A stretch of DNA of 64,000 nt from an uncultured bacterium (GCA_964459325.1 CAYWKU010000001.1:158040-222039); one strand, 5' to 3'. Shown: positions 635 to 52,282, counted from the first letter of the stretch. Notes: generated by a model not told the origin, from the sequence alone. Made by a program: numbers and translations.

Positions 635-1648
635 ATGGGCAGTCTACTCAAAATAGGGGACCTGGAGCCGGCTAATAACCTTGTTTCGGCCCCCATGGCC
701 GGGATATCCGACGCCCCGTATCGTTATCTCGCCTCGAAGTGTGGAGCCGGGTTGACTTTCACCGAAATGGCCTCCTCCAGGGGTATGATTCAGGGGGACC
801 CTAAAACCCGGCGCCTGGCGAGTTCGTACCCGGAAGCGAAGCCCTACGCTGTTCAGATTTTCGGAGAAGACCCCGGTATCGTGTCGAGGGCCGCAGGGGT
901 GGCCGCAGCTTTGGGAGCGGACGCAGTGGATTTGAACGCCGCGTGCCCGGTGAAGAAGATAGTCAAAAGCGGAGCGGGCGCGGCGCTTTTGAGGGACCTG
1001 CCGCTTCTGGGACGAATACTTCGAGGGATGAGAAAAGTACTGGATGTGCCCGTGACGGTCAAAATCCGCTCCGGTTGGGACAAGAGCAATCTTTTGGACA
1101 CGCAAGTCGCCCGGTTGGCTCGGGATGAAGGGGCGGATGCGATTTCCCTGCATCCCCGCGCCGCATCTCAGGGGTTTTCAGGAAGCGCGGACTGGGTGCG
1201 TATTGCCGGAGTGGTGCAGGCCGTTCCGGATATACCTGTGATTGCCAGCGGCGATATAACCGGCCCCGCCTCGGCTCTCGATGTTATCAAGAGGACGGGC
1301 GCCGCCGGAGTGATGATAGGCCGGGCGGCGATGGGAAATCCCTTTATTTTCCGGGAAACAGCGGCGGCGCTGGAAGGAAAATCGCTTCCCCCTGCACCTG
1401 ATTATGCCGAAAGATGCCGTGTGGCGCTGGAACATTTCGACCTGATGCTCGCCTGGTATGACCGTCGGAACGCCGTGGCCTTGTGGAGGAAGCACCTTTG
1501 CTGGTACGTTAAGGGTGTAGCCGATGCGGCCAGGTTGAGGGAGGAAGTTTTCAGGGTGTGGGACGAGAGCAAGCTGCGCCTGATGACCCTTGATTTTTTC
1601 AATATGAAGGAGGAAGACATCGCTGAAAAAAGGAGTGTGACGGTTTGA
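635..1648 (+). CDS. dusB: tRNA-dihydrouridine synthase (Dus family, DusB-like)
   Basis: N-terminal PMAGISDAPYR motif and TIM-barrel Dus signature (CPVKKIV, KIRSGWD); 337 aa; ATGA overlap with the next gene. Confidence 0.85.
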   Translation: MGSLLKIGDLEPANNLVSAPMAGISDAPYRYLASKCGAGLTFTEMASSRGMIQGDPKTRRLASSYPEAKPYAVQIFGEDPGIVSRAAGVAAALGADAVDLNAACPVKKIVKSGAGAALLRDLPLLGRILRGMRKVLDVPVTVKIRSGWDKSNLLDTQVARLARDEGADAISLHPRAASQGFSGSADWVRIAGVVQAVPDIPVIASGDITGPASALDVIKRTGAAGVMIGRAAMGNPFIFRETAAALEGKSLPPAPDYAERCRVALEHFDLMLAWYDRRNAVALWRKHLCWYVKGVADAARLREEVFRVWDESKLRLMTLDFFNMKEEDIAEKRSVTV

Positions 1649-3030
1649 ACAACGATTCCAAACCCGGGATACTTATAGCCGTGGCCGACAGCGGGATTCG
1701 CGATTCACTGGTGGATTCTTTAGGCGGCGTTTATGATGTGCGTACCGTGGACAACGCGGCTCACATTCTCGACCTGCTGGAGGAAGGCGCCTACGAGATA
1801 GCTTTCCTGGGGTGGGGAATGCCCGGACTCTCCCTCCCGGAGCTTATGGAGATATTGAGCGATAAGCGGCTTCGGGTGAAAGTGGTGATGGTGGCGGGCG
1901 AGGCCGAAAAGCATCTCAGGGCCGATGCAATAGACGCCGGCGCCGAAGCGGTGTTGGTATCGCCCTTCGACCCGCGCGAGGCCGTTGCTGTCGCTCAGAA
2001 GCTCACGCGTCGCGGCGAAGAGCTTGCTTTCGTTAAAAATTACATCGAAAGGGAAAAAGCGCGCCTTCTCGAGTATCTCGGGGTTATTGACCAGCCCGTA
2101 AAAGTGGCCGTTGACAGGGCCATGTCTCTGGTGGAAAAAGAGGCTCCCGTGTTGTTCAGGGGGGAGCCCGGCACGGGTAAAGGAATTCTGGCAAAAGCCA
2201 TGACAATGGCCGGGCCGAACCCGCTGGGGCCGTTTGAAGTATTTTCCGCAAGGGGTAAGGAGGAACGGGAGATTGAAAATGCCCTTTTCGGGGGCGGAAG
2301 CGACGCCGGTCATATAGCTAGGGCCAAGGGTGGTGCGATTCTGTTGCACGGTGTAGGGGAGTTGTCCCGGCGACTCCAGGACAGAGTTTACAGGTCAATG
2401 GACTTTTTATGGGGAGAGTTGAGGTTTCTTTTTGCCACCCGTCTTGACCTGCACGGCGCGGTTTTGAGGGACGAGTTTCACGAGGAGTTGTGGAAGGCGG
2501 TGGAAAATAACGTAGTCTCCCTGCCGCCCCTTCGGGAAAGGCCCGGAGCGGTGGAGGAGCTTGCGGTGCGCATTGTAGAGAGGTATTCCGAAAGGATGGG
2601 CTCCGCCGTAACGGAAATACACCCCTCCGCCATGCGGCTATTGGAAGATTACCCGTGGCCGGGAAACCTGGAGGAGTTGGAAAAGGTTTTGGCCCTGGCG
2701 GTAAGCCGTGCTACCGACTCGGTACTTCTTCCCGATGACCTCCCGTTTGTTTCCGCCTCCCGCTCGGCGGGGGAGTTGAGGGACGTTTCGCTGGAGGAGG
2801 CGGTGGCGGCCAAACTGGCGCCACTGGTGGACACGCTGGACGACCTGCCCGAAGGGGAACTTTACCGGCTTATCCAGTCCAAGATGGAGCGCCCCCTTTT
2901 CCAGCTTGTGCTCAAAAAGCTCGGAGGCAACCAGGTAAAGGCCGCCAAGGCTATGGGCATTCACCGGAACACCTTGCGCAAAAAGCTCAGAGAATTGGGC
3001 ATAACTCCGAAGTCCCCGGTTCTCAAGTAA
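1645..3030 (+). CDS. NtrC-family (sigma-54 activator-like) DNA-binding protein with pseudo-receiver and degenerate AAA+ domain plus Fis-type HTH
   Basis: Walker A GEPGTGKG is present. GAFTGA is replaced by SDAGHIA. Walker B DE is replaced by HG (ILLHGVGEL). The receiver phospho-Asp position is Gly (FLGWGMPG). The C-terminal GNQVKAAKAMGIHRNTLRKKLRELGI matches a Fis/NtrC HTH. LPPLRER and WPGN motifs are retained. Confidence 0.75.
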   Translation: MNNDSKPGILIAVADSGIRDSLVDSLGGVYDVRTVDNAAHILDLLEEGAYEIAFLGWGMPGLSLPELMEILSDKRLRVKVVMVAGEAEKHLRADAIDAGAEAVLVSPFDPREAVAVAQKLTRRGEELAFVKNYIEREKARLLEYLGVIDQPVKVAVDRAMSLVEKEAPVLFRGEPGTGKGILAKAMTMAGPNPLGPFEVFSARGKEEREIENALFGGGSDAGHIARAKGGAILLHGVGELSRRLQDRVYRSMDFLWGELRFLFATRLDLHGAVLRDEFHEELWKAVENNVVSLPPLRERPGAVEELAVRIVERYSERMGSAVTEIHPSAMRLLEDYPWPGNLEELEKVLALAVSRATDSVLLPDDLPFVSASRSAGELRDVSLEEAVAAKLAPLVDTLDDLPEGELYRLIQSKMERPLFQLVLKKLGGNQVKAAKAMGIHRNTLRKKLRELGITPKSPVLK

Positions 3031-3082
3031 AATTTTCCGGCTTTGTCTCCGCCGGGGGCGGGGGTGATATGACAGCAGTGGA

Positions 3083-4399
3083 ATGACCGGTTATAAGAAA
3101 TATAAGAGCGCCGAATCCGGTGATTCCTCCCACAGCGGAGGGATTGTGTACGGGGGGTTCGATACAGGGACAGGCCGGTACGACCTTGGAGTGCCCGGGT
3201 TGGTGGCCGAGTGCATAGAGGAGATGTACCACTCCACCGGGGTTGAAGTGGCGCAGCGGGACAGATTGCTCCCGGCGGGGATAATAGCCGGAATAATCCT
3301 GGGCTTCGGTTTCGGTTTTCATCCCGCCGGCATAATTTACGGGCCTATCGGAGCTGCGTTGGGAGTGATATTCGGTGCTGCAGGCGGTTTTGTGGTTGGA
3401 TTGGCGCTTACTACGCTCGGAGAGCCGTGGTTGAAGCCACGGGCGCAGATGCTGCGGCAGGTGAAAAAGGGTAACTTCCGGAGCGCTTTAATGTCCCTCG
3501 GGCGCGCCGGGTTCTGGATATTTCGCGACCGCAATCCTTTCGAAAGGCTGACCCGCCTGCTGGTTTCCCCCCTCGGGTTGGGAAGTCCTGATTTGCCGCC
3601 GGACATAGCCGCCGCAAACCTGGTGGCGGTTGAGGGAGTGTTGGCGGAAAGCGTGGGCGACGTCGAAGAGGCCGTGAATTCATACCTGGCGGCTCTACAT
3701 TTATGGCCTCGACACACCTTTGTACTGGCCAGCGTAATGGAGTTGCTCATAAGGGAGGAAATTTACGACAGGTTGCAGGAGGTAGTCGAGGCCGCACACC
3801 GCTACCTGGACAGGGCAAGAGACCCCAGGTTGGTCAGGGCGGTGAACGACCACCTGGATTCTCTCAAGGACTCCTTTCAAAAGAGGGAAAAGCGCTCCGA
3901 GTTTAAAATGCATGAGCCGGAAATGGCTTATTTAAAGGAAAGGGTGGAAAGGGAGCAACCCTCATGCAACTTGGTTGAAAACCCCGGCAGCCAGATAACC
4001 AACGGCCTTTTGATAGTTGGAAGCTCCGGCGAGGAAAAAACCCTCAAGCTGGCGGCCATGCCGTTTCACCTGCTTCTTTTCCTGGCTGAGGCGATGAAGG
4101 AAAGCGCTCACCGGTATGGGGAAGACTCCTCCCAGGCGGGGTGGGTGAGCATACAGGAGTTGCTGGAAAAACTGCCATGGACCACGCCTAACGTAACCAA
4201 CTCTAACGTTCACAAACTGGTGTACAAAGTGAGAAATCAGATCGAGGACGCGGGTTTGGACAGGAATCTGGTGGAGGAGAACCTCAACGGCTGCTATCGT
4301 TTGAGTACGCCGTCTGAAAAAATCGAAATCCGCAGGTTTGACTCCGGGGTCGATGGCGCCAAACCGGAAGCGGTGACCGAATATGGGTTGAGGAAATGA
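3083..4399 (+). CDS. membrane-anchored protein with glycine-zipper TM segment and C-terminal OmpR/PhoB-type winged-helix DNA-binding domain
   Basis: Gly-rich hydrophobic region AGIIAGIILGFGFGF...GAAGGFVVGLAL. The C-terminus VHKLVYKVRNQIEDAGLD...NGCYRLS resembles the trans_reg_C wing. A 4-bp overlap with the downstream Memo gene. Confidence 0.5.
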   Translation: MTGYKKYKSAESGDSSHSGGIVYGGFDTGTGRYDLGVPGLVAECIEEMYHSTGVEVAQRDRLLPAGIIAGIILGFGFGFHPAGIIYGPIGAALGVIFGAAGGFVVGLALTTLGEPWLKPRAQMLRQVKKGNFRSALMSLGRAGFWIFRDRNPFERLTRLLVSPLGLGSPDLPPDIAAANLVAVEGVLAESVGDVEEAVNSYLAALHLWPRHTFVLASVMELLIREEIYDRLQEVVEAAHRYLDRARDPRLVRAVNDHLDSLKDSFQKREKRSEFKMHEPEMAYLKERVEREQPSCNLVENPGSQITNGLLIVGSSGEEKTLKLAAMPFHLLLFLAEAMKESAHRYGEDSSQAGWVSIQELLEKLPWTTPNVTNSNVHKLVYKVRNQIEDAGLDRNLVEENLNGCYRLSTPSEKIEIRRFDSGVDGAKPEAVTEYGLRK

Positions 4400-5619
4400 G
4401 CGAGGAAGAAAACCCCCGGCTCAGGCCGATTCTGTTTATGAAAACCAAGATGGAGGGCAAGGACTATATCCTCGCTCAGGACCGGACGCGCCAGGCTCAG
4501 CCGGTGTTGTTGCCCTCGGCACTGGAGCCGATTTTACGGCTACTGGACGGAAATCATTCACTCCGGGATATCCAGATGGAGCTTACCCGCGCACAGGGAG
4601 GGCAACTGGTTTCTTTCGACGAAGTAAAAAATATCGTGGAGCAGCTGGACAGCCACATGCTCCTGGACAGCGAGCGTTTCAGGGAGACTCAGGAGCTGGA
4701 GCGAAGGTTCTGGGAAGGGTGCAGGTTGAGGAAACCCTTTCATTCGGGACAGGCGTATCCGGATGACCCGGATGAATTGATGAAGATGCTCGACGGTTTT
4801 TACTCCGGTCTCGACTCCGACCCTGTTATCCGGGAGGGTGAGTTTGTAAGGGGCCTGCTGGCTCCACATATTGACATAAGGAGTGGCGGACCGACGTTCG
4901 CGCGAGCTTACCGGGAGCTTTCGGGCGAGCCGCGCGCCGGGCTTTACGTGATACTGGGAACGGCCCACGATTATACTCCCGGGCCGGTGAGCATAAGCCC
5001 CAAGGATTACCTTACCCCTCTTGGCGTGGCAAGGACGGACAATGATTTCATAGACAGGCTGGCTTGTAAGTATAATCCGGACTGGCTTATGGACGATACT
5101 TCCCATAAGACCGAGCACAGCATAGAATTTCAATTGATTTTCCTCCAGCACCTGTTGGGTTCAGGAGACATGCCGCCGGTTGTGCCGGTGCTGGCGGGAG
5201 GATTTTCCGAGTATGTAGAAGGCGGCTCGAGCCCGGCCGATGACGAGAGAGTCGCTCGCTTCATAGAAGCATTCAAGGAAACTGCCGAAGAAGACGGGCG
5301 GAAGATTACTTACATAGTGGGAGGCGACCTGGCTCACATAGGTCCCCGTTACGGCGATTCACACAAGGTGTTGCCCGATGACATCAAAACGTGTTCGGAA
5401 AAAGACATGCAAATGCTCGAAAAAGCGTGCGAAGGGGCCGAGGAGTTTTTCGAGTGCGTCGCCGGGGAAGGTGACCGACGCAATATATGCGGAATGCCGC
5501 CGCTTTATCTTATGCTAAAGCTGATTGACGGGGCAAAAGGCGAAATCATCAGCAATTCCCACTGGTTCGACGAATCCACCGGGAGCGCCGTTACTTTCGC
5601 CGCCATGGTATATAAATAA
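4396..5619 (+). CDS. MEMO1-family protein (AmmeMemoRadiSam system protein B-like) with an N-terminal extension of about 130 aa
   Basis: Motifs GLLAPHIDIRSGG, VILGTAHD and GGDLAHIGPRYGD are typical of Memo/LigB-type dioxygenase-fold proteins; 407 aa versus about 270 for typical Memo. Confidence 0.7.
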   Translation: MSEEENPRLRPILFMKTKMEGKDYILAQDRTRQAQPVLLPSALEPILRLLDGNHSLRDIQMELTRAQGGQLVSFDEVKNIVEQLDSHMLLDSERFRETQELERRFWEGCRLRKPFHSGQAYPDDPDELMKMLDGFYSGLDSDPVIREGEFVRGLLAPHIDIRSGGPTFARAYRELSGEPRAGLYVILGTAHDYTPGPVSISPKDYLTPLGVARTDNDFIDRLACKYNPDWLMDDTSHKTEHSIEFQLIFLQHLLGSGDMPPVVPVLAGGFSEYVEGGSSPADDERVARFIEAFKETAEEDGRKITYIVGGDLAHIGPRYGDSHKVLPDDIKTCSEKDMQMLEKACEGAEEFFECVAGEGDRRNICGMPPLYLMLKLIDGAKGEIISNSHWFDESTGSAVTFAAMVYK

Positions 5620-5633
5620 AACGGGGCGGGAGT

Positions 5634-6434
5634 TCAGTCCCTGATAATTCTTACCAACTCCTGGGTAAATTCGGGTCTCCCGGGGGTAAGTGCCCCGAAT
5701 TCGGCGATAATTCTGACCGGTCGGTGGGGGGCGGACTTTTGGTACCACACGGTAAACTCCGGCAGCACCCGAGTCAGGAGTTGCCCCAGCATTCCCCTTG
5801 GCTTGACCATGTTTTCCTTATCCACCGCCACCTTTACCTTCCAGGTTTCCAGTTCCTTCCACGGTACTTTCAGGCGTTCCTCTTTTTCCACCTTCACCTT
5901 CACCGCCGTGGGCGTTCCTTCCTGGGTGTAAATATGCAGCGAAGTCTTTTTGCCTTTGGCGAAATTGAAACCGGTTAAAGCAAACGGCACGCTGACCAGG
6001 TGAATAGTATCGGGAGGAAGTTGATAGAAGGAATCACCAAACCACGATTCTTCGTGGTAGTATTTCTTCCCCATAGGCGTATATTTGTCCAGTGTGTAGC
6101 CGAGATGTCGCACAGCTTGGGAGTTTCGGCGGTACTTAAATACCCATACCTGCTTGGCGCCGTCCGAACGGATTTCCCGGCAGGTGTGGATTATTCTCTT
6201 TTCGTCATTCCCGTTTTCTTCGATGGAGAATGAGTGTTCGGAATGAATCAGTTTTGAGGGGGTCAGAAAGCTTTTGCCGTGTATTTTTTCCTTTACCCGG
6301 TAGACATAAGTCTCGTCCGGCGACAGGATAGGTGGAGTCAACGTTTTGACGGAAGTTTCGGGATAAGCGGGGGAAAAAGCGAAAGTAAGGGCCATGACGG
6401 CGGTTATGATTATGCATGCCTGTAGTTTGCTCAT
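5634..6434 (-). CDS. secreted hypothetical protein
   Basis: Start placed at MSKLQACIIITAVMALTFA (signal peptide) with ATGA overlap to the upstream SCP2 gene. The longer ORF to 6596 is a basic-residue artefact. Confidence 0.45.
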   Translation of the reverse strand: MSKLQACIIITAVMALTFAFSPAYPETSVKTLTPPILSPDETYVYRVKEKIHGKSFLTPSKLIHSEHSFSIEENGNDEKRIIHTCREIRSDGAKQVWVFKYRRNSQAVRHLGYTLDKYTPMGKKYYHEESWFGDSFYQLPPDTIHLVSVPFALTGFNFAKGKKTSLHIYTQEGTPTAVKVKVEKEERLKVPWKELETWKVKVAVDKENMVKPRGMLGQLLTRVLPEFTVWYQKSAPHRPVRIIAEFGALTPGRPEFTQELVRIIRD

Positions 6435-7051
6435 GAAGCCCGGTGCGTCCAGTCGCCGATAAGTATACTGCCGATTTCCATTGCGAATCTTATGTCGCCC
6501 ACCATGTTGATTTTTCCGGACATGAAAGCGCTCTGAGGGTTGAGCTCCCCTTTTCTCATGGCGGAAGCGTCTTCTTCGTTTATGGAAATGACGCAATCAG
6601 GCTCGGTATGGACTTGTTCCCCGAAAACAGCCGTAATGCCCCAGTCGCCCTTGTCGGGATTTGTCAGCACAAATTTTATGGAGCCGTTTTTGGTTTTCAG
6701 TTTCTCCACGGTTTCCTGGGAGATAAACTCGGTCACCCCCTCGTCGGTATCACCCGGCAGGCGGAATTTAAATCCCCTTTCACCGGTTATAGAACTTCGC
6801 CAGTCTTTTGTGTCCTGCACGATTTTTACGACGCAGTCCGGATTTTCACCCGGTGTACATTTCATCTCATCTCCGTTGAAAGCGATACTCCAGGCGCCAC
6901 CTTCTTCCCCTTCCAGCCTGAAGGTTATACAGGTTTTGATTGGTTTTGTGCCGGCGGGCAGGTTGGCCTTGTTTTCGCGGAAAGTTTCCGGCAATAGCTC
7001 GGTAAAAAAATGCTCCGGCGTTATATCCGGTGGTATCGTTTTGTCATTCAT
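6431..7051 (-). CDS. SCP2 sterol-carrier-like domain protein
   Basis: 206 aa; the C-terminus MSGKINMVGDIRFAMEIG resembles the SCP2 fold. Confidence 0.4.
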   Translation of the reverse strand: MNDKTIPPDITPEHFFTELLPETFRENKANLPAGTKPIKTCITFRLEGEEGGAWSIAFNGDEMKCTPGENPDCVVKIVQDTKDWRSSITGERGFKFRLPGDTDEGVTEFISQETVEKLKTKNGSIKFVLTNPDKGDWGITAVFGEQVHTEPDCVISINEEDASAMRKGELNPQSAFMSGKINMVGDIRFAMEIGSILIGDWTHRAS

Positions 7052-8679: not shown

Positions 8680-11262
8680 TTATAATTGAGAAATTTCTTC
8701 CTCTACCTTCGCTGAAGGGGTAACGCTTACCACCCCGGCGCCACCATTAACAGTTATGATGTCACCGGTCCTTATACAGTTGCAAGCACCCTGTACGCAA
8801 GCTACGCAAGGCAGACCGAAAGCTCTGGAAATGAGACCGATTCCGGATACGAAGCTGCCGGTTTCCGACACCATGGCTCCCGCCACGCCCGCCAGGGGAT
8901 ACATGGCGGAGTTCATCCCGGGAAGGACGGCGACCTGCCCTTGCCCGAGATTCCGAATATCCTCCGGTTTCCGGATTACGCGGGCGGAACCGGTGTATTC
9001 CCCGGAGCATACCCCAATGCCGTGAAGAGTGATTTCAGCCGGGCGAGTCGTTTCCGGCTCCCGAAGCCGTTGGTTTTCGTTAATATCGACCTGGCGCAGG
9101 TTGTTGAATTCTTCCCTTCTCCGGTTTACAAGCTCCTCAGGCGCTGTGCTCAACACCTCCAGGGAAAGCAGCTTTTTAATCTCTTCCAGGCGGAGAAAAA
9201 ATACGTCGCTATCGGAAGCGATTTCGTTCCTCGCCCGGAATCTTCTGCCGGTTTCCAGCAGCATTTTTCGGAGGGTTAAAGCAGCTTCGGCGATGCTTTT
9301 GTCGAGCTTTTGTGTCGAGCTTTCGGAAGCTCGGGCTTTTTCCAGGCAGTGCTTCAGTCCTTTGCTTGCGAAAAACCCCGTACTTTTGGTTGTTTCCCGG
9401 TAATTTTCGGCGGCCCGTGCCGAAGCGGTGTTCATCCTGGTTGTGGGGTCGGTTATTTCTCCGTTTTTCGCCATCATGACAATCATGGCCGCCGGCTCTT
9501 GCGATTGCTCCTTCCACCCGCCACGAGCGCATTCAAGTATTCCCGAAGATAAGTAGCCGTACTTATTGAGAAATTCTACGAGCCGCCTGTTGAAAAGCTC
9601 GCCTCCTTCCACTCGTAGCGCAAACAACTGGATTTCCTGCCAACCGGTAAGTTCTTCCATTTTTTCCGGAATTCGTCCTATTGATTCCGCCAGCCTTCCC
9701 AGCTTCCACGTATCCCTTGTCAGGGCTTTTCCCAGAGGCGAAGGGGGCAGGGCGGCATGAATTTCAGCAGCGCGGTCGGGGATTTTCGATTCCAGGAGGT
9801 TTCTGAGGGTGGAATGAAGGAGAATCAGGCAAAGCCGGAGTTCGGTGCGGGCGGTTATGAGGGGTTCGATTACGTCTTCTATAACCTCCTCCGTCAGTAA
9901 ATACAGGGCCGCGTCGCTTTTGCCTCTCAAGTCCGTGCGCTCGAGCCGCTTTTTCCGTTGAAGAAGCGCGGGGAGCGTTTTTTCCAACCTTTTGTTGATT
10001 TTACGCGCTGCTTTTCCCGCCCGGAATATCGTCATGAGGTTGCCGATTGTCCCTTTCGGCTTTGCAGGTGCAAGGACATCGTCTTTGAGAGTGGTCTCGG
10101 GCGCGATTTCCGGGTAGATGTTCATCAACTGCGCCAGGTGGTCGGTAAGCTCGGCGGAATTAACGTGCAGCCTGCCGTATAGGTCGGTGAAAAGTTTCAT
10201 GTCGTCGGCAATACGGATACCGGCGTTTTTCATTGCCGAGTGAGCGGCTTTTTCCACAAGGGGCATCATTATGCTTTTAGTGCATGGCGTCATGGGTTCA
10301 TCGGTCATAAATTCCGCCGCCCAATCCAGGCGGGACCATTTCCGCCCGGCATCGTGCTCGCGTGTTTCCGTCATGGGTTTGGCGCCCACTATGTGGAAGT
10401 TGCCTCCCACGGCGCACCAGTTCACGGCCTGAGGCGCTCCCATTTGCTCTTCCACCCGGCCCCCGAACTTTGCTAATGCGCACGCCAGCTCCTCGGTCAG
10501 GCCGGAAGGCCGGGGGCCGGTCAATCGCCTTTCTTCGAGCTGCCAATCGGCACGCGCCACGTGGAATATCTCCGGCTGAGGCCTTTTTCCCGGCGAATTA
10601 TCCGTAACGCCGCCGGTGGCTTCCAGGACAAGAACGTCGGGATTTCCGGTGGCCGGGTCGGAGGTGTATAACGTGCCGGAAACATCGGCGGGAACCATCC
10701 TTTGCACGATAACAGCCATTCGCGGAGGGCGGTGCAATGCACCCACCCGGGCGAGATACCTCAATGCTTTCGGATTGAACGCCTCCGACCAGATTTTCCT
10801 TATCCCATCGAAGAGGGCATCGTAGCCCTGTATCCCGGGCCGGCATTCGTAAAGGCCGGAGGGGGGAGGCGGTTCGTTTTGATGAAATACCGGGTCGGTG
10901 CGAACTATCACCTCCACGTACGGGTTCCCCTCCCCAAGGTTGGAATAGGCCTGCCGGATATCCTGCTCGATGGGTTCGTTTATTTGAACGGCATTTATGA
11001 GGTCGCTAATTTCGGAGGCAGATTTCGACAGAGAATCTTCATCCAGCGATTCGATTTTCGGGAGTAATTCTTTAACCTTTTCCCAAAATTCGGAGCTTTC
11101 CACGCACCTTTCCCAGGCTGTTGATGTAACCGCGAACCCCTCGGGCACGGGGAATCCGGCTTTTATCAGTGCTCCCAGGGAAGCCGTCTTGCGGCCTGAA
11201 ACGCGGGTGTAGTCGCCGGTCGAAATGTTTTCCAGCGGGACGGTTATGGGCGGCGTTACCAT
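8680..11262 (-). CDS. PEP-utilising-enzyme family protein (rifampin phosphotransferase / PEP synthase-like architecture); swivel-domain His apparently replaced
   Basis: N-terminal PPDK-type ATP-grasp (SLGALIKAGFPVPEGFAVT). 860 aa. The C-terminal mobile domain aligns with GGRTSHAAIIARELGIP as TGSFVSGIGLISRAFGLP, which places His at a Gly. Confidence 0.6.
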   Translation of the reverse strand: MVTPPITVPLENISTGDYTRVSGRKTASLGALIKAGFPVPEGFAVTSTAWERCVESSEFWEKVKELLPKIESLDEDSLSKSASEISDLINAVQINEPIEQDIRQAYSNLGEGNPYVEVIVRTDPVFHQNEPPPPSGLYECRPGIQGYDALFDGIRKIWSEAFNPKALRYLARVGALHRPPRMAVIVQRMVPADVSGTLYTSDPATGNPDVLVLEATGGVTDNSPGKRPQPEIFHVARADWQLEERRLTGPRPSGLTEELACALAKFGGRVEEQMGAPQAVNWCAVGGNFHIVGAKPMTETREHDAGRKWSRLDWAAEFMTDEPMTPCTKSIMMPLVEKAAHSAMKNAGIRIADDMKLFTDLYGRLHVNSAELTDHLAQLMNIYPEIAPETTLKDDVLAPAKPKGTIGNLMTIFRAGKAARKINKRLEKTLPALLQRKKRLERTDLRGKSDAALYLLTEEVIEDVIEPLITARTELRLCLILLHSTLRNLLESKIPDRAAEIHAALPPSPLGKALTRDTWKLGRLAESIGRIPEKMEELTGWQEIQLFALRVEGGELFNRRLVEFLNKYGYLSSGILECARGGWKEQSQEPAAMIVMMAKNGEITDPTTRMNTASARAAENYRETTKSTGFFASKGLKHCLEKARASESSTQKLDKSIAEAALTLRKMLLETGRRFRARNEIASDSDVFFLRLEEIKKLLSLEVLSTAPEELVNRRREEFNNLRQVDINENQRLREPETTRPAEITLHGIGVCSGEYTGSARVIRKPEDIRNLGQGQVAVLPGMNSAMYPLAGVAGAMVSETGSFVSGIGLISRAFGLPCVACVQGACNCIRTGDIITVNGGAGVVSVTPSAKVEEEISQL

Positions 11263-12077
11263 TTATTCCGGAGTTCTCTGAGCGCCAGGAACACGCTTTT
11301 ATCGTCGTCGAATGAGCGGTTGAATTTATCGGAAAGCAACCCCCGTATTTCAGCGGAATCCAGGCGGAAGAACGGGCTGTGCTCGCGCTCGTCGGCCAGG
11401 GAGGTTTCCAGTATTTCTTCGCCGGAAGCCAGAAATTTCGCCTCCTCGAGCTTGCGCTTGGCAGCCGCGTTGCCCGGCTCCACCGAGAGAGCGAATTCCA
11501 GGTTTCTTTTGGCATAATCATGACCCGGGTGGAGCACGGTATCGCCGGGGAGTGTATGTATCTTGTTTTTGAAGCTTTCGTACAATTGCTCGGGGTTGCC
11601 GCCGAAGCGGGGGTTGCCGCAGCCGGCGACGAAAACGGTGTCTCCCGAGAACAGATGGGGTTGCCCGTCGGAGGGCTTGAACAGAAGGCATATGCTGCCC
11701 TGGGTATGGCCCGGAGTGTGTATTACCTGGACGGACATGCCGTCCACGTTGATGTTGCGGCCTTCGGAAAGCGGCTTCGGTTCTCCGTGTATGGTCACCC
11801 GGTCGGGGTCGTGGGCATAGAGCTTCGCCCCGGTTCGCCTGACCAGTTCCGAGTTTCCGCCGGTGTGGTCGGGATGGCCGTGGGTGTTGATGAGGGCGGC
11901 TATTTTTCCCAGACCGGCTTCGGAAACGGCTTCCATGATGTCGCCGGCGTCGACGGGGTCAATCGCCGCACACTGCTTGCCTTCTCCCGCTGAAAGAACA
12001 TAGCTCTGGTTGTCCGACCCCGCCGGTATTCTCAAAACAATCATTTCTTCTCCTCCTGAATCATTAGAAAGTATCAC
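11256..12077 (-). CDS. MBL-fold metallo-hydrolase (hydroxyacylglutathione hydrolase-like)
   Basis: HxHxDH motif INTHGHPDHTGGN; 7-bp overlap with the downstream PEP-utilising gene. Confidence 0.8.
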   Translation of the reverse strand: MILSNDSGGEEMIVLRIPAGSDNQSYVLSAGEGKQCAAIDPVDAGDIMEAVSEAGLGKIAALINTHGHPDHTGGNSELVRRTGAKLYAHDPDRVTIHGEPKPLSEGRNINVDGMSVQVIHTPGHTQGSICLLFKPSDGQPHLFSGDTVFVAGCGNPRFGGNPEQLYESFKNKIHTLPGDTVLHPGHDYAKRNLEFALSVEPGNAAAKRKLEEAKFLASGEEILETSLADEREHSPFFRLDSAEIRGLLSDKFNRSFDDDKSVFLALRELRNKW

Positions 12078-20453: not shown

Positions 20454-21797
20454 TCAACACCCTGTTAGGGGCACGGCTTCCAGGTCGTAAACGAAGGCGT
20501 CGGTAATTTCGACGGTAAGTCTTTCCCCCGGTTCAAAGTAGTTGTCCGGCAAGTAAATTTCCCCGTCCACTTCCGGAGCGTGGAACACGGAGCGGGCCGC
20601 AATCCGGCCTTCGGCCTCTTCGGAAGGCCCGTCCACCAGCGCCTCGACTCTCTTGCCTACCCAGTCCCGGTTTATTTCCCAGCTTATCTCTTGTTGGAGC
20701 CTCATAATTATGTCGAGTCTTTCGGCTTTTATCCTTTCGGGCACTTGTCCCGGCATGTTGTAAGCGGGAGTGTTTTCTTCCCTGGAGTAAGCGAACGCCC
20801 CCAGCCGCTCCAGCCTCCGGGTGCGCACGAAATCCGCGAGTTGCTCGAATTCGCTTTCGGTTTCACCGGGAAATCCCACCATGACCGTAGTCCTGATGAC
20901 GGCGCCGGGGATTATTCGCCTGATTGTATTTATCGTGTTTTCGAGTTCAACTCGCGAGCCCGGCCTTCCCATTCTTTTAAGCACCGAATCTGCGGCGTGT
21001 TGAACGGGGATATCCACGTAAGGGCAAATGTTCGGGAAGGAGGCGATAGTTTCCAACACATCCTCCTTCAGGTGAGCCGGATGAGAATACATGACCCGTA
21101 TCCATGTGTCGGGTAAGGCGTTTGCCGTTTTTTTCAGCAGGTGCGCCAGTTTTTGTTTTCCATAACGGTCGATGCCGTACATTGCAGTGTCCTGACCGAC
21201 CAGGACTATCTCTTTTGCTCCCATCTCGACCATTTCGGTGGCCTCGGCTATGATGTGGGAGGTGGGTCGGGAGCGGAAGTCGCCTTTTATGGCGGGAATT
21301 GTGCAGTATGCGCAACGATTTTTGCATCCTTCGCTTATTTTTACATAAGAAAACGGTTCGTCCCCCAGACTGCGCCGGGGTTCCTTTCGGGGGAGAAAGC
21401 CTTTTCGGGGCGGTAAAGTGAATCTCCTCTTGTGTTGCAGCGCATTCTCTATTATTCGAGGTAGTTTGCGATAATCGGTGGCCGAAACCCATGCGTCTAC
21501 CCCGGGAAGGGCTTCGCCGATGTCTGTTTCCCCGCGATGCCTTTCGGGCATGCAGCCCGCCACCACCAGGGCTTTAACCTCCCCCCCGTATTTGTGCTCC
21601 TGGAGTTCCACCAGGGTTTCCGCGCTTTCCTCCTCTGCGTCGCGCACAAAGGCGCAGGTAAACAGAAGGGCGACATCGGCGGGGCCGTCGGAGTCGACTA
21701 TGCCGTAGCCTTCCTTTTCCAGCAGGCCGGCTACGGTTTCGGCGTCCGCGCGGTTCTTGGCGCATCCGAGGATGAGAATTTTTACGCTTGCCGCCAT
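20454..21797 (-). CDS. rimO: ribosomal protein S12 methylthiotransferase (MiaB/RimO family radical SAM)
   Basis: N-terminal MTTase domain, radical SAM CKNRCAYC and a C-terminal TRAM-like domain. Confidence 0.8.
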   Translation of the reverse strand: MAASVKILILGCAKNRADAETVAGLLEKEGYGIVDSDGPADVALLFTCAFVRDAEEESAETLVELQEHKYGGEVKALVVAGCMPERHRGETDIGEALPGVDAWVSATDYRKLPRIIENALQHKRRFTLPPRKGFLPRKEPRRSLGDEPFSYVKISEGCKNRCAYCTIPAIKGDFRSRPTSHIIAEATEMVEMGAKEIVLVGQDTAMYGIDRYGKQKLAHLLKKTANALPDTWIRVMYSHPAHLKEDVLETIASFPNICPYVDIPVQHAADSVLKRMGRPGSRVELENTINTIRRIIPGAVIRTTVMVGFPGETESEFEQLADFVRTRRLERLGAFAYSREENTPAYNMPGQVPERIKAERLDIIMRLQQEISWEINRDWVGKRVEALVDGPSEEAEGRIAARSVFHAPEVDGEIYLPDNYFEPGERLTVEITDAFVYDLEAVPLTGC

Positions 21798-21842
21798 AAA
21801 GTTTATTTATAAGGTTTCCGGAAAAGTTTTTCCAGGGGCCGC

Positions 21843-30484: not shown

Positions 30485-30558
30485 GGGTGGTTAGCTCAGC
30501 CAGGTAGAGCATCGGACTTTTAATCCGAGGGCCGAGGGTTCGAATCCCTCACCACCCA
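30485..30558 (+). tRNA. tRNA-Lys: tRNA-Lys (anticodon UUU)
   Basis: Cloverleaf with acceptor stem GGGTGGT/ACCACCC, D-arm TAGCTCAGCCAGGTAGAGCA, anticodon loop CTTTTAA and T-arm GGTTCGAATCC. Confidence 0.85.
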
Positions 30559-50392: not shown

Positions 50393-51955
50393 TTATTTGT
50401 GATTCCGTTGGTTGTTTAATTTGAGTCTACTCTTGAGAGTTCCTGTAGTTTTATGCTCTTGATAGGGCATAATCTTTAGTTGTTTGTTGGAGACTTTTAT
50501 TACTCCGCTTTTCCAATTTTTGAGACTCAACAAGAAAGTTTCGAACGCTGCGCCGATTTTGAAAAAGTGGGTGCTTGACCTGAATATGGCCCGGAAAAAT
50601 TGCTTGTTTTTGGGGTACATTCTGATAATGTTATAAACTCTCCAGGGCCTGAAATAAAATCGCCGGTAAGCGCTCCTGATTACTTTTTTTAAATCTACGA
50701 ATCCGTTGGCGGCCGTTTGGTAGACCGGTTTCCGGTAATGCAAGCTGGGCAGATTTTCTTCGTTAAATTCGTAGTCGGGATAGTTTTGTTTGACGATGTC
50801 GAAGAGCTCCGTTCTCGGGTAAGCCAATACCGAAAAGAACAATGCTCTGAGCGCTTTGCTCTTTATGGCGAATTTTATGGTTTCTTCCATCTCCTCGGGC
50901 GTTTCGGAAGGGAATCCGAGCATGAAAAAAGCAGAGGGAATGATGCCCGCGTTGTATGCTTTTTCCATGTTTTCCCTTACTTTTTCCACATCCAGGTTCT
51001 TTTTCATCATTTTCTGCAGCCTCGGAGTGACCGTTTCCACGGCGAAGACCATACAATAGGTGCCGGCTTGCGCCAGGAGCCGGATAAGCTCGTCGTCCAG
51101 CCTGTCTCCTCTCACCCCGTTGGGAAAGGCCAGCTTTATATCTATGCCGGAGCGAATGATTTCCCTGCAAATCTCTTTGGCCGTGTCCAGGTCGTAGTTG
51201 AAAATATCGTCGAAAAAATGAATTTCTTTTACTCCATAATCCCTGTTTAAAGCCCGGATTTCGTCCACCACGTTTTCAACGCTCCTGGCCCTGAAGCGCT
51301 TTCCGAAAATTTTATGGCAGTAAACGCACTTATAAGGACAGCCCCTGCTGGTCATTATAGGCATGTAAGGAGACTTGGCCAGGAAGGAGTTCATACTTAC
51401 CGTTTTGTCGTATGCCTTGATGTCTATGAGGTCCCATGCGGGATGGGGAATGCTGTCCATATCCGTGATAAAAGGACGGGGAGGATTTATAACATGCTCG
51501 CCATTGCTGCTGTAGGCGAGCCCCCGGATGTCGGTCCAGTCCTTTCCGGATTGAAGGCGGTCTAAAAGTTCGACGAAAGTTTCCTCGCCTTCTCCCACCA
51601 CGACAGCGTCCGGCTCGGGCTTGTTCAGCACATGGTCGGTGAAAAAAGTGGCGTGAGGGCCGCCTACTACTATGAAGGCCGACGGCAAAATACTCTTGGT
51701 CAGGGACATTATATTATACAGTCCGGGCGCTTCGACGGTCAGGACGCTGAAACCTACAACGTCGGGGTTATAGCTTTGGAGTAGCCGCTTATATTGGGCT
51801 ACCGAATGCATGCTGGCGCGCATATGAATGAGCTTCACCTCGGGGGGCGGGCTGACCCATTGACGGGCCGCGGAGGCCAGGTACATGGCTCCGAGAGGAG
51901 GGGTTACGCCAGCAGCCTCAACATACCACAAAGGGCGAACAAGTAATAATTTCAT
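50393..51955 (-). CDS. B12-binding domain radical SAM protein
   Basis: N-terminal B12-binding Rossmann domain plus radical SAM SRGCPYKCVYC. Start set at MKLLLVRP; the ORF extends to 52138, but the upstream codons look non-coding. Confidence 0.75.
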   Translation of the reverse strand: MKLLLVRPLWYVEAAGVTPPLGAMYLASAARQWVSPPPEVKLIHMRASMHSVAQYKRLLQSYNPDVVGFSVLTVEAPGLYNIMSLTKSILPSAFIVVGGPHATFFTDHVLNKPEPDAVVVGEGEETFVELLDRLQSGKDWTDIRGLAYSSNGEHVINPPRPFITDMDSIPHPAWDLIDIKAYDKTVSMNSFLAKSPYMPIMTSRGCPYKCVYCHKIFGKRFRARSVENVVDEIRALNRDYGVKEIHFFDDIFNYDLDTAKEICREIIRSGIDIKLAFPNGVRGDRLDDELIRLLAQAGTYCMVFAVETVTPRLQKMMKKNLDVEKVRENMEKAYNAGIIPSAFFMLGFPSETPEEMEETIKFAIKSKALRALFFSVLAYPRTELFDIVKQNYPDYEFNEENLPSLHYRKPVYQTAANGFVDLKKVIRSAYRRFYFRPWRVYNIIRMYPKNKQFFRAIFRSSTHFFKIGAAFETFLLSLKNWKSGVIKVSNKQLKIMPYQEHKTTGTLKSRLKLNNQRNHK

Positions 51956-52111
51956 GGGACTGAATTTTACCAATTTTACCAACCAAAAGTCAACCCCCTT
52001 TTTCTGATTAAATTTTGTGCAATTCATGTCTGGTTGTCCTTCAAAAATAAGTAATAAGTAACCAAAATGGCTAATTGCACTACCTATTAAAGGTTTACTT
52101 GCGTTCATTAC

Positions 52112-52146
52112 TGTCCAAAATAACCCGAAAATAGCCATTTTGGACG
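52112..52146. promoter_or_regulatory. operator-like inverted repeat TGTCCAAAAT-N15-ATTTTGGACG
   Basis: 10-bp arms. A related site CTGTCCAA-N14-TTGGACAG lies at 52350-52379 and a half-site at 52217-52226, in the divergent region. Confidence 0.5.
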
Positions 52147-52282
52147 GGTTAAGTCCCTGATTTTATTAGAGTATGCAAATAATCCAAAAACCTGGTTCAC
52201 TCTGTGTGGCATATGCTGTCCAAAATAGGAGGTCATAGCAAATTCCTGCGATTTCATTCAAAAAACTTCTCGAAAAGCCCCG

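Follow-up and report, generated by a model that had tools for sequence, protein, structure and literature searches.

Across the range from bacteria to humans, it is not settled what proteins of the Memo family (Pfam PF01875) do biochemically. MEMO1 binds Fe and Cu, its ligands being H49, H81, and C244, and its activity is not known (PMC11081632). The canonical bacterial Memo is ~270 aa long and is component B of the three-gene AmmeMemoRadiSam system, in which it stands beside AMMECR1 and a radical SAM enzyme. In the literature on the function of this system and of Memo–AMMECR1 we found nothing on mechanism; the key comparative paper is that of Burroughs et al. 2019 (JBC), cited in PMC7159879. 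Among regulators, members of the OmpR/PhoB family carry an effector domain with an N-terminal beta-sheet, three helices, and a wing; ToxR, CadC, and TcpP tether an OmpR-type winged helix to the cytoplasmic membrane and have no separate kinase; and SARP/AfsR/EmbR proteins combine the OmpR-type winged helix with a TPR-like helical domain. Here we compare with these systems a two-gene locus from an uncultured bacterium, on the + strand of a 64 kb stretch of DNA (CAYWKU010000001.1:158040-222039; hereafter the window). Open reading frame (ORF) A (3083..4399, 438 aa from ATG 3083) encodes a predicted membrane-anchored winged-helix protein, and ORF B (4396..5619, 407 aa), recognized by profile matches, encodes a long-form Memo protein of the MEMO1 family.

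In what we consider the probable reading, the locus encodes two separable proteins that are co-transcribed in this lineage: a rare membrane regulator and a stand-alone long Memo. A regulatory or physical link between them in this lineage is possible, and the reading does not require one. By comparison with their homologues both ORFs are real protein-coding genes, since homologues at 24–84% identity keep their length and motifs. The two genes are co-directional and meet in an ATGA stop/start overlap (4396..4399, +) that can be read directly in the sequence, the translational-coupling arrangement that an initial annotation of the window had described; because of this overlap, and because the + strand shows no terminator-like site from 635 to 5619, ORF A and memo would be transcribed together. 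The novelty of the locus appears to lie mainly in the architecture of ORF A, and secondly in the long Memo as a large stand-alone subfamily with an RRE-like N-terminal domain.

ORF A, a predicted membrane-tethered regulator

The N-terminal part of ORF A carries a conserved motif and helix (DLGVPGLVAECIEEMYHSTG; 3170..3247, +, residues ~30–55), predicted to be cytoplasmic, with invariant alignment columns from D34 to G53 and an AlphaFold helix at 38–51 (predicted local distance difference test, pLDDT, 76–93). There follows the predicted membrane anchor, a two-helix glycine-zipper hairpin (3266..3421, +, residues 62–113). Hydropathy places hydrophobic helices at ~62–80 and ~87–113, with Kyte–Doolittle windows reaching 2.16 and the four-residue loop HPAG between them, and AlphaFold places helices at 62–78 and 81–112. 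Continuous GxxxG runs extend from G66 to G78 and from G90 to G106, their glycines being invariant, and a Gly-zipper_Omp protein (P0160) is among the matches of the ORF A profile. The glycine zipper of the initial annotation is thereby upheld, while its single transmembrane segment is replaced, on hydropathy, by two adjacent helices. Arg residues precede helix 1, and the 39 residues after helix 2 hold 9 Lys and Arg residues versus 2 Asp and Glu; from this charge distribution we infer a predicted N-in/C-in topology, with both soluble parts in the cytoplasm and no periplasmic domain. Any sensing by ORF A would therefore be intramembrane or cytoplasmic.

The middle of the protein (3437..3910, +, residues 119–276) is a predicted helical-repeat, TPR-like domain. 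AlphaFold models it as helix pairs, mostly at pLDDT 88–96, and Foldseek matches it to TPR proteins at probabilities up to 1.00, in keeping with the helical middle region noted at the outset; the ORF A profile also matches multi-TPR proteins at positions 167–258. No Pfam TPR family is found on the ORF A of the window, and sub-threshold TPR_2 and TPR_11 matches occur on the homologues P0129 and P0135. A disordered linker (274–289) separates the helical repeats from the C-terminal domain in the AlphaFold model, which was built from 16 sequences and has a mean pLDDT of 80. A match to the anti-sigma domain zf-HC2 in ORF A (E=0.28) was rejected: the homologues do not conserve it, and its Cys/His pattern is missing. 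The N-terminal module of ORF A (motif, zipper hairpin, and first helical repeats) also occurs on other C-termini, in P0140, P0141, and P0146: a coiled-coil-rich protein of 599 aa, a protein of 638 aa, and one with a weak DUF4145 match. This distribution suggests a reusable membrane-anchor or sensor module with exchangeable outputs.

The C-terminal domain (3962..4333, +, residues 294–417) is predicted to be an OmpR/PhoB-type winged helix with NSNVHKLVYKVR as its putative recognition helix. In the AlphaFold model (pLDDT ~85–95 over the domain), strands at 294–299, 308–314, and 317–323 are followed by helices at 325–345, 357–363, and 373–389 and by strands at 397–399, 405–407, and 414–417 that form a beta-hairpin wing. 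Foldseek matches this model to the DNA-binding domains of CadC (5ju7), ArlR (6is4), and SaeR (4u88), with a probability of 1.00 and target-normalized TM values of 0.62–0.65; against ArlR 6is4 the root-mean-square deviation is 3.3 Å over 97 columns. In a search of 1.84 billion sequences, the ORF A profile reached the C-terminal regions of FHA-domain proteins (E=1e-6 to 1e-3), and on those regions Pfam Trans_reg_C scores 23.7–28.6 bits, at or near its cutoff of 26.2 bits. We accept the C-terminus as a predicted OmpR/PhoB-type winged helix because of this fold match and of the transitive homology through proteins with FHA and Trans_reg_C domains. The OmpR-type call of the initial annotation is accordingly carried by AlphaFold, Foldseek, and transitive homology, and not by the Trans_reg_C hidden Markov model. 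The FHA and Trans_reg_C proteins P0143, P0148, P0153, P0157, P0163, and P0145 are the closest recognizable relatives of the domain, and differ from EmbR in architecture; P0145 has two FHA stretches and two regions resembling the winged helix.

Compared with the OmpR/PhoB effector domains of ArlR, SaeR, and CadC, ORF A shows the same predicted topology of N-terminal beta-sheet, three helices, and wing, but it lacks a receiver domain, scores below the Pfam gathering threshold, and carries unusual motifs that its family strongly conserves (VENPGSQISNG, GWVSIQELL, and NSNVHKLVYK). As in ToxR, CadC, and TcpP, an OmpR-type winged helix would be held at the cytoplasmic membrane and no separate kinase would be involved. 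However, ToxR-like proteins begin with the winged helix, cross the membrane once, and end in a periplasmic sensor, whereas in ORF A the order is inverted: N-terminal motif, hairpin with the HPAG turn and essentially no periplasmic loop, cytoplasmic TPR-like domain, and C-terminal winged helix. With SARP, AfsR, and EmbR proteins, ORF A shares the OmpR-type winged helix and the TPR-like helical domain, the winged helix of EmbR being a marginal match; yet SARPs are soluble and contain a BTAD, while ORF A is predicted to be membrane-anchored, places its helical domain before the winged helix, and has no match to the BTAD model. Judged from sequence and model, the ORF A architecture (inverted order, hairpin anchor, and no periplasmic sensor) appears rare for a membrane-tethered OmpR-type regulator. 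In the preferred reading ORF A would act as a rare one-component regulator that its glycine-zipper hairpin anchors in the inner membrane, leaving the two ends cytoplasmic; the TPR-like domain would probably bind a partner or ligand, and the winged helix beyond the disordered linker might bind tandem direct repeats as an oligomer, with oligomerization controlled through the membrane zipper and the TPR-like domain.

A candidate site for such binding lies upstream of the ORF A homologues of a distant clade, in the form of a tandem direct repeat with a 12-nt period. The repeat reads GGTGATTTTAAG then GTGATTTTAAAG in L016 (7811-7829), L020 (40-58), and L021 (17-35), AGAGATTTTTAG then GTGATTTTAAAG in L015 (7832-7850), and GGAGATTTTCAG then GAGATTTTGAAG in L028 (5612-5630), where both copies carry the same T-to-A change; as a motif it takes the form GGTGATTTTAAGGTGATTTTAAAG in the L016 clade and GWGATTTTNARGWGATTTT in the pattern used for searching. 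It stands ~15 nt upstream of a promoter-like TTGCAA/TTGAAA-17-TTTGAT and, together with the adjacent TATTGCAAAA, forms the best-conserved block of that intergenic region. Its architecture and position are those of an OmpR/PhoB-type activator site and, by that analogy, suggest positive autoregulation in the distant clade. The candidate repeat supports DNA binding for the ORF A family, with no target in the window, where ORF A lacks a separate intergenic region; the distant clade in this way offers a testable candidate operator for a regulator of this type. The ORF A homologue of L028 (5748-7004) is split into parts of 137 aa and 186 aa, as a frameshifted pseudogene or through an assembly error.

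Several results weigh against ORF A as a membrane-tethered DNA-binding regulator. Pfam Trans_reg_C (PF00486) matches residues 354–400 below threshold (E=0.27, 11.8 versus 26.2 bits), and a C-terminal profile run against PDB sequences gives marginal matches to AdeR (E=0.23), EmbR (E=0.25), and the winged helix of Tpt1 (~0.2). The predicted winged-helix domain is net acidic (12 Lys and Arg versus 16 Asp and Glu); the search pattern has a single match in the window, with three mismatches and inside the Memo coding sequence, which is at chance level; and membrane insertion is predicted by hydropathy only. An alternative that draws on some of these results is that ORF A has a role other than that of a transcription factor: with a winged helix that binds protein or RNA, it would serve at the membrane as a scaffold or adaptor, for instance of the machinery for the envelope or for glycosylation. 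The sub-threshold Trans_reg_C score, the acidic domain, and the missing operator in the window agree with this, as does the RNA-binding winged helix of Tpt1/KptA, whose match is as marginal as those of AdeR and EmbR; so, too, does the gene directly upstream of, and co-directional with, the middle-clade ORF A homologues, which encodes a TPR membrane glycosyltransferase of the PMT_2 (ArnT-like) type in L010 (5958-7931) and L012 (1653-3626) and gives a weak PMT_2 match in L011 (4706-6421). On the other hand, the best structural matches are genuine DNA-binding domains of the OmpR family, complete with beta-sheet, alpha1–3, and wing, and the profile matches fall on Trans_reg_C domains of other proteins. 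The putative recognition helix, moreover, is the most conserved segment of the ORF A family, near-invariant and bearing H377, K378, K382, and R384, and the tandem repeat with the architecture of an OmpR site stands upstream of the genes of one clade. We therefore regard the scaffold or adaptor role as very unlikely, and continue to read ORF A as a probable membrane regulator.

The family to which ORF A belongs has few members. Its relatives give 8 matches among 5.8 billion clusters, and its profile gives 45 matches among 1.84 billion representatives, of which a handful are full-length; the family is present in 3 of 185,579 species genomes, all of them metagenome-assembled genomes of uncultured organisms, and in 11 metagenome loci. 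By these counts the full-length family is extremely small, and it is unannotated.

ORF B, a stand-alone long Memo

Residues 114–404 of ORF B (4735..5607, +) form the Memo catalytic and metal-binding domain, with a predicted 2-His-1-Cys site at H158, H191, and C365. Pfam Memo matches this region at E=7.7e-35 (120.8 bits against a cutoff of 27), over positions 2–268 of the 269 of the model. A long-Memo profile made from 40 aligned long homologues matches the human MEMO1 structure 7kq8 at E=1.9e-25 and aligns H49, H81, and C244 with H158, H191, and C365; these three residues are invariant among the aligned long Memos, and so are D311 and H314, the counterparts of D189 and H192 in MEMO1. On these sequence comparisons ORF B belongs to the Memo family, sharing with MEMO1 both an above-threshold Memo domain and the conserved ligands, and its metal site looks intact because the published MEMO1 ligands fall on invariant residues. 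ORF B would accordingly resemble MEMO1 in being a non-haem Fe/Cu-binding protein with a 2-His-1-Cys site.

What MEMO1 and the canonical ~270-aa bacterial Memo do not have is the N-terminal extension of ORF B (4396..4731, +, residues 1–112). The initial annotation had this extra domain at about 130 aa; the Memo assignment and the domain itself are retained, and the size is corrected to ~112 aa. The extension is conserved in all 40 aligned long-Memo proteins, and AlphaFold, given the domain alone (28 sequences), models it at pLDDT 87 with strands at 12–19, 22–29, and 37–40 and helices at 41–49, 56–66, 74–86, and 93–108, a beta3-alpha3(+alpha4) order. Three strands followed by three helices is also the order of PqqD-like RREs (PF05402, PaaA-like_N), and from this model we describe the domain as winged-helix/RRE-like. 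No sequence or fold match to that description reaches significance, which counts against it. The sequence matches are all sub-threshold (PqqD, PaaA-like_N, PKMT_2nd, and HTH_47), the scores for PqqD and RRE models being E=0.2 for TIGR03859, a best E of 0.014 for PF05402 (in 2 of 28 members), and E=0.71 for PaaA 5ff5; and a Foldseek search of the domain against the PDB returned no RRE and nothing significant (best E=0.075). Unlike the settings of PqqD-like RREs, the locus has no precursor peptide or RiPP enzymes nearby. The best of the weak Foldseek matches are to the winged helices of PKMT1/2, Rv2067c, and NO66 (query-normalized TM 0.42–0.49), all of them protein-modifying enzymes. The top profile matches of the domain among PDB sequences, to troponin C EF-hands (E ~0.06), were set aside as spurious: they are compositional, and the fold is different. 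The conservation of the N-terminal domain across long Memos suggests that a macromolecule, a peptide or a protein, is the substrate or partner, and the domain may be a recognition module that recruits it.

The long Memo is far more abundant than ORF A. A homology search gave at least 3,541 matches, the 120 best of which are 374–443 aa long with at least 89% query coverage and 35–84% identity; on this count the long Memo (~406 aa) is a very large subfamily, and it is a stand-alone one. That no AMMECR1 or radical SAM partner lies beside the pair had been noted from the outset, and is confirmed for the window and for the related loci. The AMMECR1 signature RGC[IVL]G is absent from window ORFs of at least 80 aa (across 64 kb, 3 kb of it upstream of the pair), and the AMMECR1 Pfam family is absent from the gene tables of L002–L009. 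A radical SAM enzyme of the AmmeMemo type is found neither in the window nor in the related loci. Only two window ORFs contain CX3CX2C, and they lie 15 kb and 45 kb away: RimO (20457-21806, –; 443 bits with TIGR01125) and a B12-binding, BchE/HpnJ-type radical SAM enzyme (50396-52162, –; 589 aa), which scores under every equivalog cutoff. Around eight related or distant long-Memo loci, likewise, neither AMMECR1 nor radical SAM occurs within 8–10 kb on either side. The missing partners had been presented as unusual, a view that does not hold: since all the distant long-Memo members examined also lack AMMECR1 and radical SAM neighbors, their absence is normal, and standing alone is the norm for the subfamily as sampled here.

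These results bear on the alternative that ORF B is component B of a canonical AmmeMemoRadiSam system whose partners lie elsewhere in the genome, beyond the window. TIGR04336 (AmmeMemoSam_B) does match ORF B (96.7 bits, cutoff 26), the sources of several homologues call them 'AmmeMemoRadiSam system protein B', and the window holds just 3 kb upstream of the pair. Yet the stricter equivalog NF001987 falls below its cutoff (103.8 versus 295 bits), ORF B has an additional conserved domain relative to the canonical protein and is only ~23–28% identical to a canonical short Memo, and neither partner is seen in the window or near the eight long-Memo loci. We consider a dispersed canonical system highly improbable. 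Because two of its three defining components were sought and not found, ORF B is, on present annotation evidence, not to be filed under the three-gene AmmeMemoRadiSam system; its stand-alone status and N-terminal domain separate long Memos from the current annotation of that system.

Association of ORF A with Memo across loci

ORF A adjoins a long Memo in L001–L005, L014, L018, and L026, at ORF A identities of 50–100%. In L002–L005, the paired loci long enough to show it, the whole neighborhood is syntenic, in the order Dus, bacterial enhancer-binding protein (bEBP), ORF A, Memo, DUF3108, SCP2, thioredoxin-reductase-like, FMN_red, and PPDK-like. The ATGA overlap is kept in L002, and gaps of ~35–56 nt take its place in L003 and L018. 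Beyond these loci the two genes are found apart. Long Memos at 40–51% identity have other neighbors (an extracytoplasmic-function sigma factor with genes of unknown type, Lar_N, or Peptidase_M49) and no ORF A, and no Memo is present in the available flanks of the ORF A homologues of L010, L011, L012/13, L019, L017, and L027 (24–49% identity) or of a shorter ORF A relative in L029; the Memo-less homologues represent at least four lineages. A partner common to ORF A across clades was considered and rejected, as the neighbors differ clade by clade: dusB–bEBP–Memo in one, PMT_2 glycosyltransferases in another, RNase R, PlsY, and PilZ in a third, and genes of unknown type elsewhere. In L010 and L011, too, PilZ genes are found within 1–6 kb of the ORF A homologue. 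A Lar_N (LarA-like)/DUF362 gene stands just upstream of the long Memo in L007 (6670-7983), and a similar one (10286-11596) lies ~1 kb from the ORF A homologue of L010, which may be coincidence. By these comparisons the adjacency of ORF A and long Memo is lineage-specific and not that of a conserved two-component system, independence being the majority pattern.

Set against this pattern, the two families meet a second time, apparently independently. In L015, L016, and L021, the most distant clade that is well sampled (33–38% identity), the order is ORF A-like, plsY, PilZ, a 268-aa Memo, hisB, hisH, and hisA, so that only plsY and PilZ stand between the ORF A homologue and the Memo gene downstream of it (9233-11217 in L015 and 9253-11237 in L016). 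This Memo is of the canonical short form (Pfam E=7.7e-78). That ORF A should meet Memo-family genes twice independently is unlikely by chance, with a probability of ~1e-4 on a rough post-hoc estimate that assumes 1–2 Memo genes per ~3,500-gene genome and ~6–7 lineages. Both the meeting and the estimate speak for a link, and it is because two juxtapositions are unlikely by chance for so rare a family that we keep the coupling hypothesis in consideration, as a doubtful one.

In that hypothesis, the model of the initial annotation, the locus is a genuine two-gene module in which a membrane winged-helix protein and a Memo enzyme are functionally linked. The regulator might respond to Memo activity or to its metal or redox state, or Memo might modify or bind the regulator, for example through contact between the TPR-like domain of the one and the N-terminal recognition domain of the other. 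The ATGA coupling in the window and in L002, the adjacency kept down to 50% ORF A identity, and the distant meeting with a short Memo are all consistent with a module, and both proteins have domains likely to bind proteins or peptides. But Memo is missing from the 5–8 kb around ORF A in at least four lineages, the overlap is lost in L003 and L018, and with at least 3,541 long Memos against 8–45 ORF A relatives nearly all long Memos cannot have an ORF A, none being present in the distant long-Memo contexts examined. In clade I the surroundings are syntenic too, so the adjacency there is not independent evidence; and in the distant clade plsY and PilZ intervene and his genes follow, in what looks like a housekeeping stretch. 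The neighborhood comparison thus cuts both ways: the pair is kept in syntenic relatives and has a distant short-Memo counterpart, and it is separate in other lineages. For a membrane-tethered transcription factor coupled to a Memo enzyme, the predicted domains and the co-transcription layout are sustained, while the coupling is restricted to a lineage.

Less likely still, and in our view improbable, is that the ORF A and Memo families are genuine partners that were assembled twice, with a long Memo here and a short Memo in the distant clade. The hairpin-anchored regulator with its TPR-like domain and winged helix would then read out, or be modified by, a Memo Fe/Cu redox enzyme, and the RRE-like domain of the long Memo would dock onto a peptide segment or a protein partner. 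A true partnership would, for the first time, let bacterial Memo function be approached from its regulation and physiology, and would serve experiments on Memo biology as an entry point; if the association with Memo is not real, the locus is an ordinary lineage-specific gene arrangement. Two separable proteins that share a transcript in this lineage remain our preferred reading.

Gene starts, neighboring genes, and other features of the window

An alternative start for ORF A, GTG 3146 (+), gives a protein of 417 aa and is the one used in the NCBI/Logan public gene call; GGAGG stands 4 nt 5' of it, and the Shine–Dalgarno signal at ATG 3083 is weak only. Upstream on the same strand are dusB (635-1648, +; Dus E=6e-76, TIGR00737 325.9 bits) and a degenerate bEBP-like response regulator (1645-3030, +) with REC, Sigma54_activat (43.7 bits only), and HTH_8 domains. 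These two genes overlap by 4 nt, and a 52-nt gap then leads to ORF A, so that the pair does lie directly downstream of dusB and of what had been called a pseudo-bEBP. The bEBP-like protein lacks GAFTGA and the Walker B DE, having LLHGVGEL in place of hhhhDE, and its C-terminus matches the Fis model at 58.9 bits; the arrangement with dusB recalls the gammaproteobacterial dusB–fis operon, and the two genes are kept together in L002–L005. We think it plausible that dusB, the bEBP-like gene, ORF A, and memo probably form one transcription unit with the pair at its tail. Control of the pair by the adjacent bEBP from a σ54 promoter is unsupported: σ54 promoter matches in the window are fewer than in shuffled controls, none lies upstream of ORF A or dusB, and the bEBP-like protein lacks the motifs just named. 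In PADLOC, ORF A and ORF B match no defense model, and the bEBP-like protein matches generic RtcR/PspF AAA+HTH models only.

The 140-nt region upstream of dusB contains a direct repeat, TTAATCATGATAAT and TTAATCATGCTTAT, at a 39-nt spacing (515-567, +), which overlaps a promoter-like TTTATA-18-GATAAT at 499-528. On the other side of the pair, a minus-strand gene string (5634-7051) converges on the 3' end of memo with a 14-nt gap; its order is DUF3108, duplicated SCP2, thioredoxin-reductase-like, FMN reductase, and a PEP-utilizing protein (PPDK_N/Rph-like), and it is syntenic in L002–L005. The window contains a single tRNA gene, at 30485-30558 (+).

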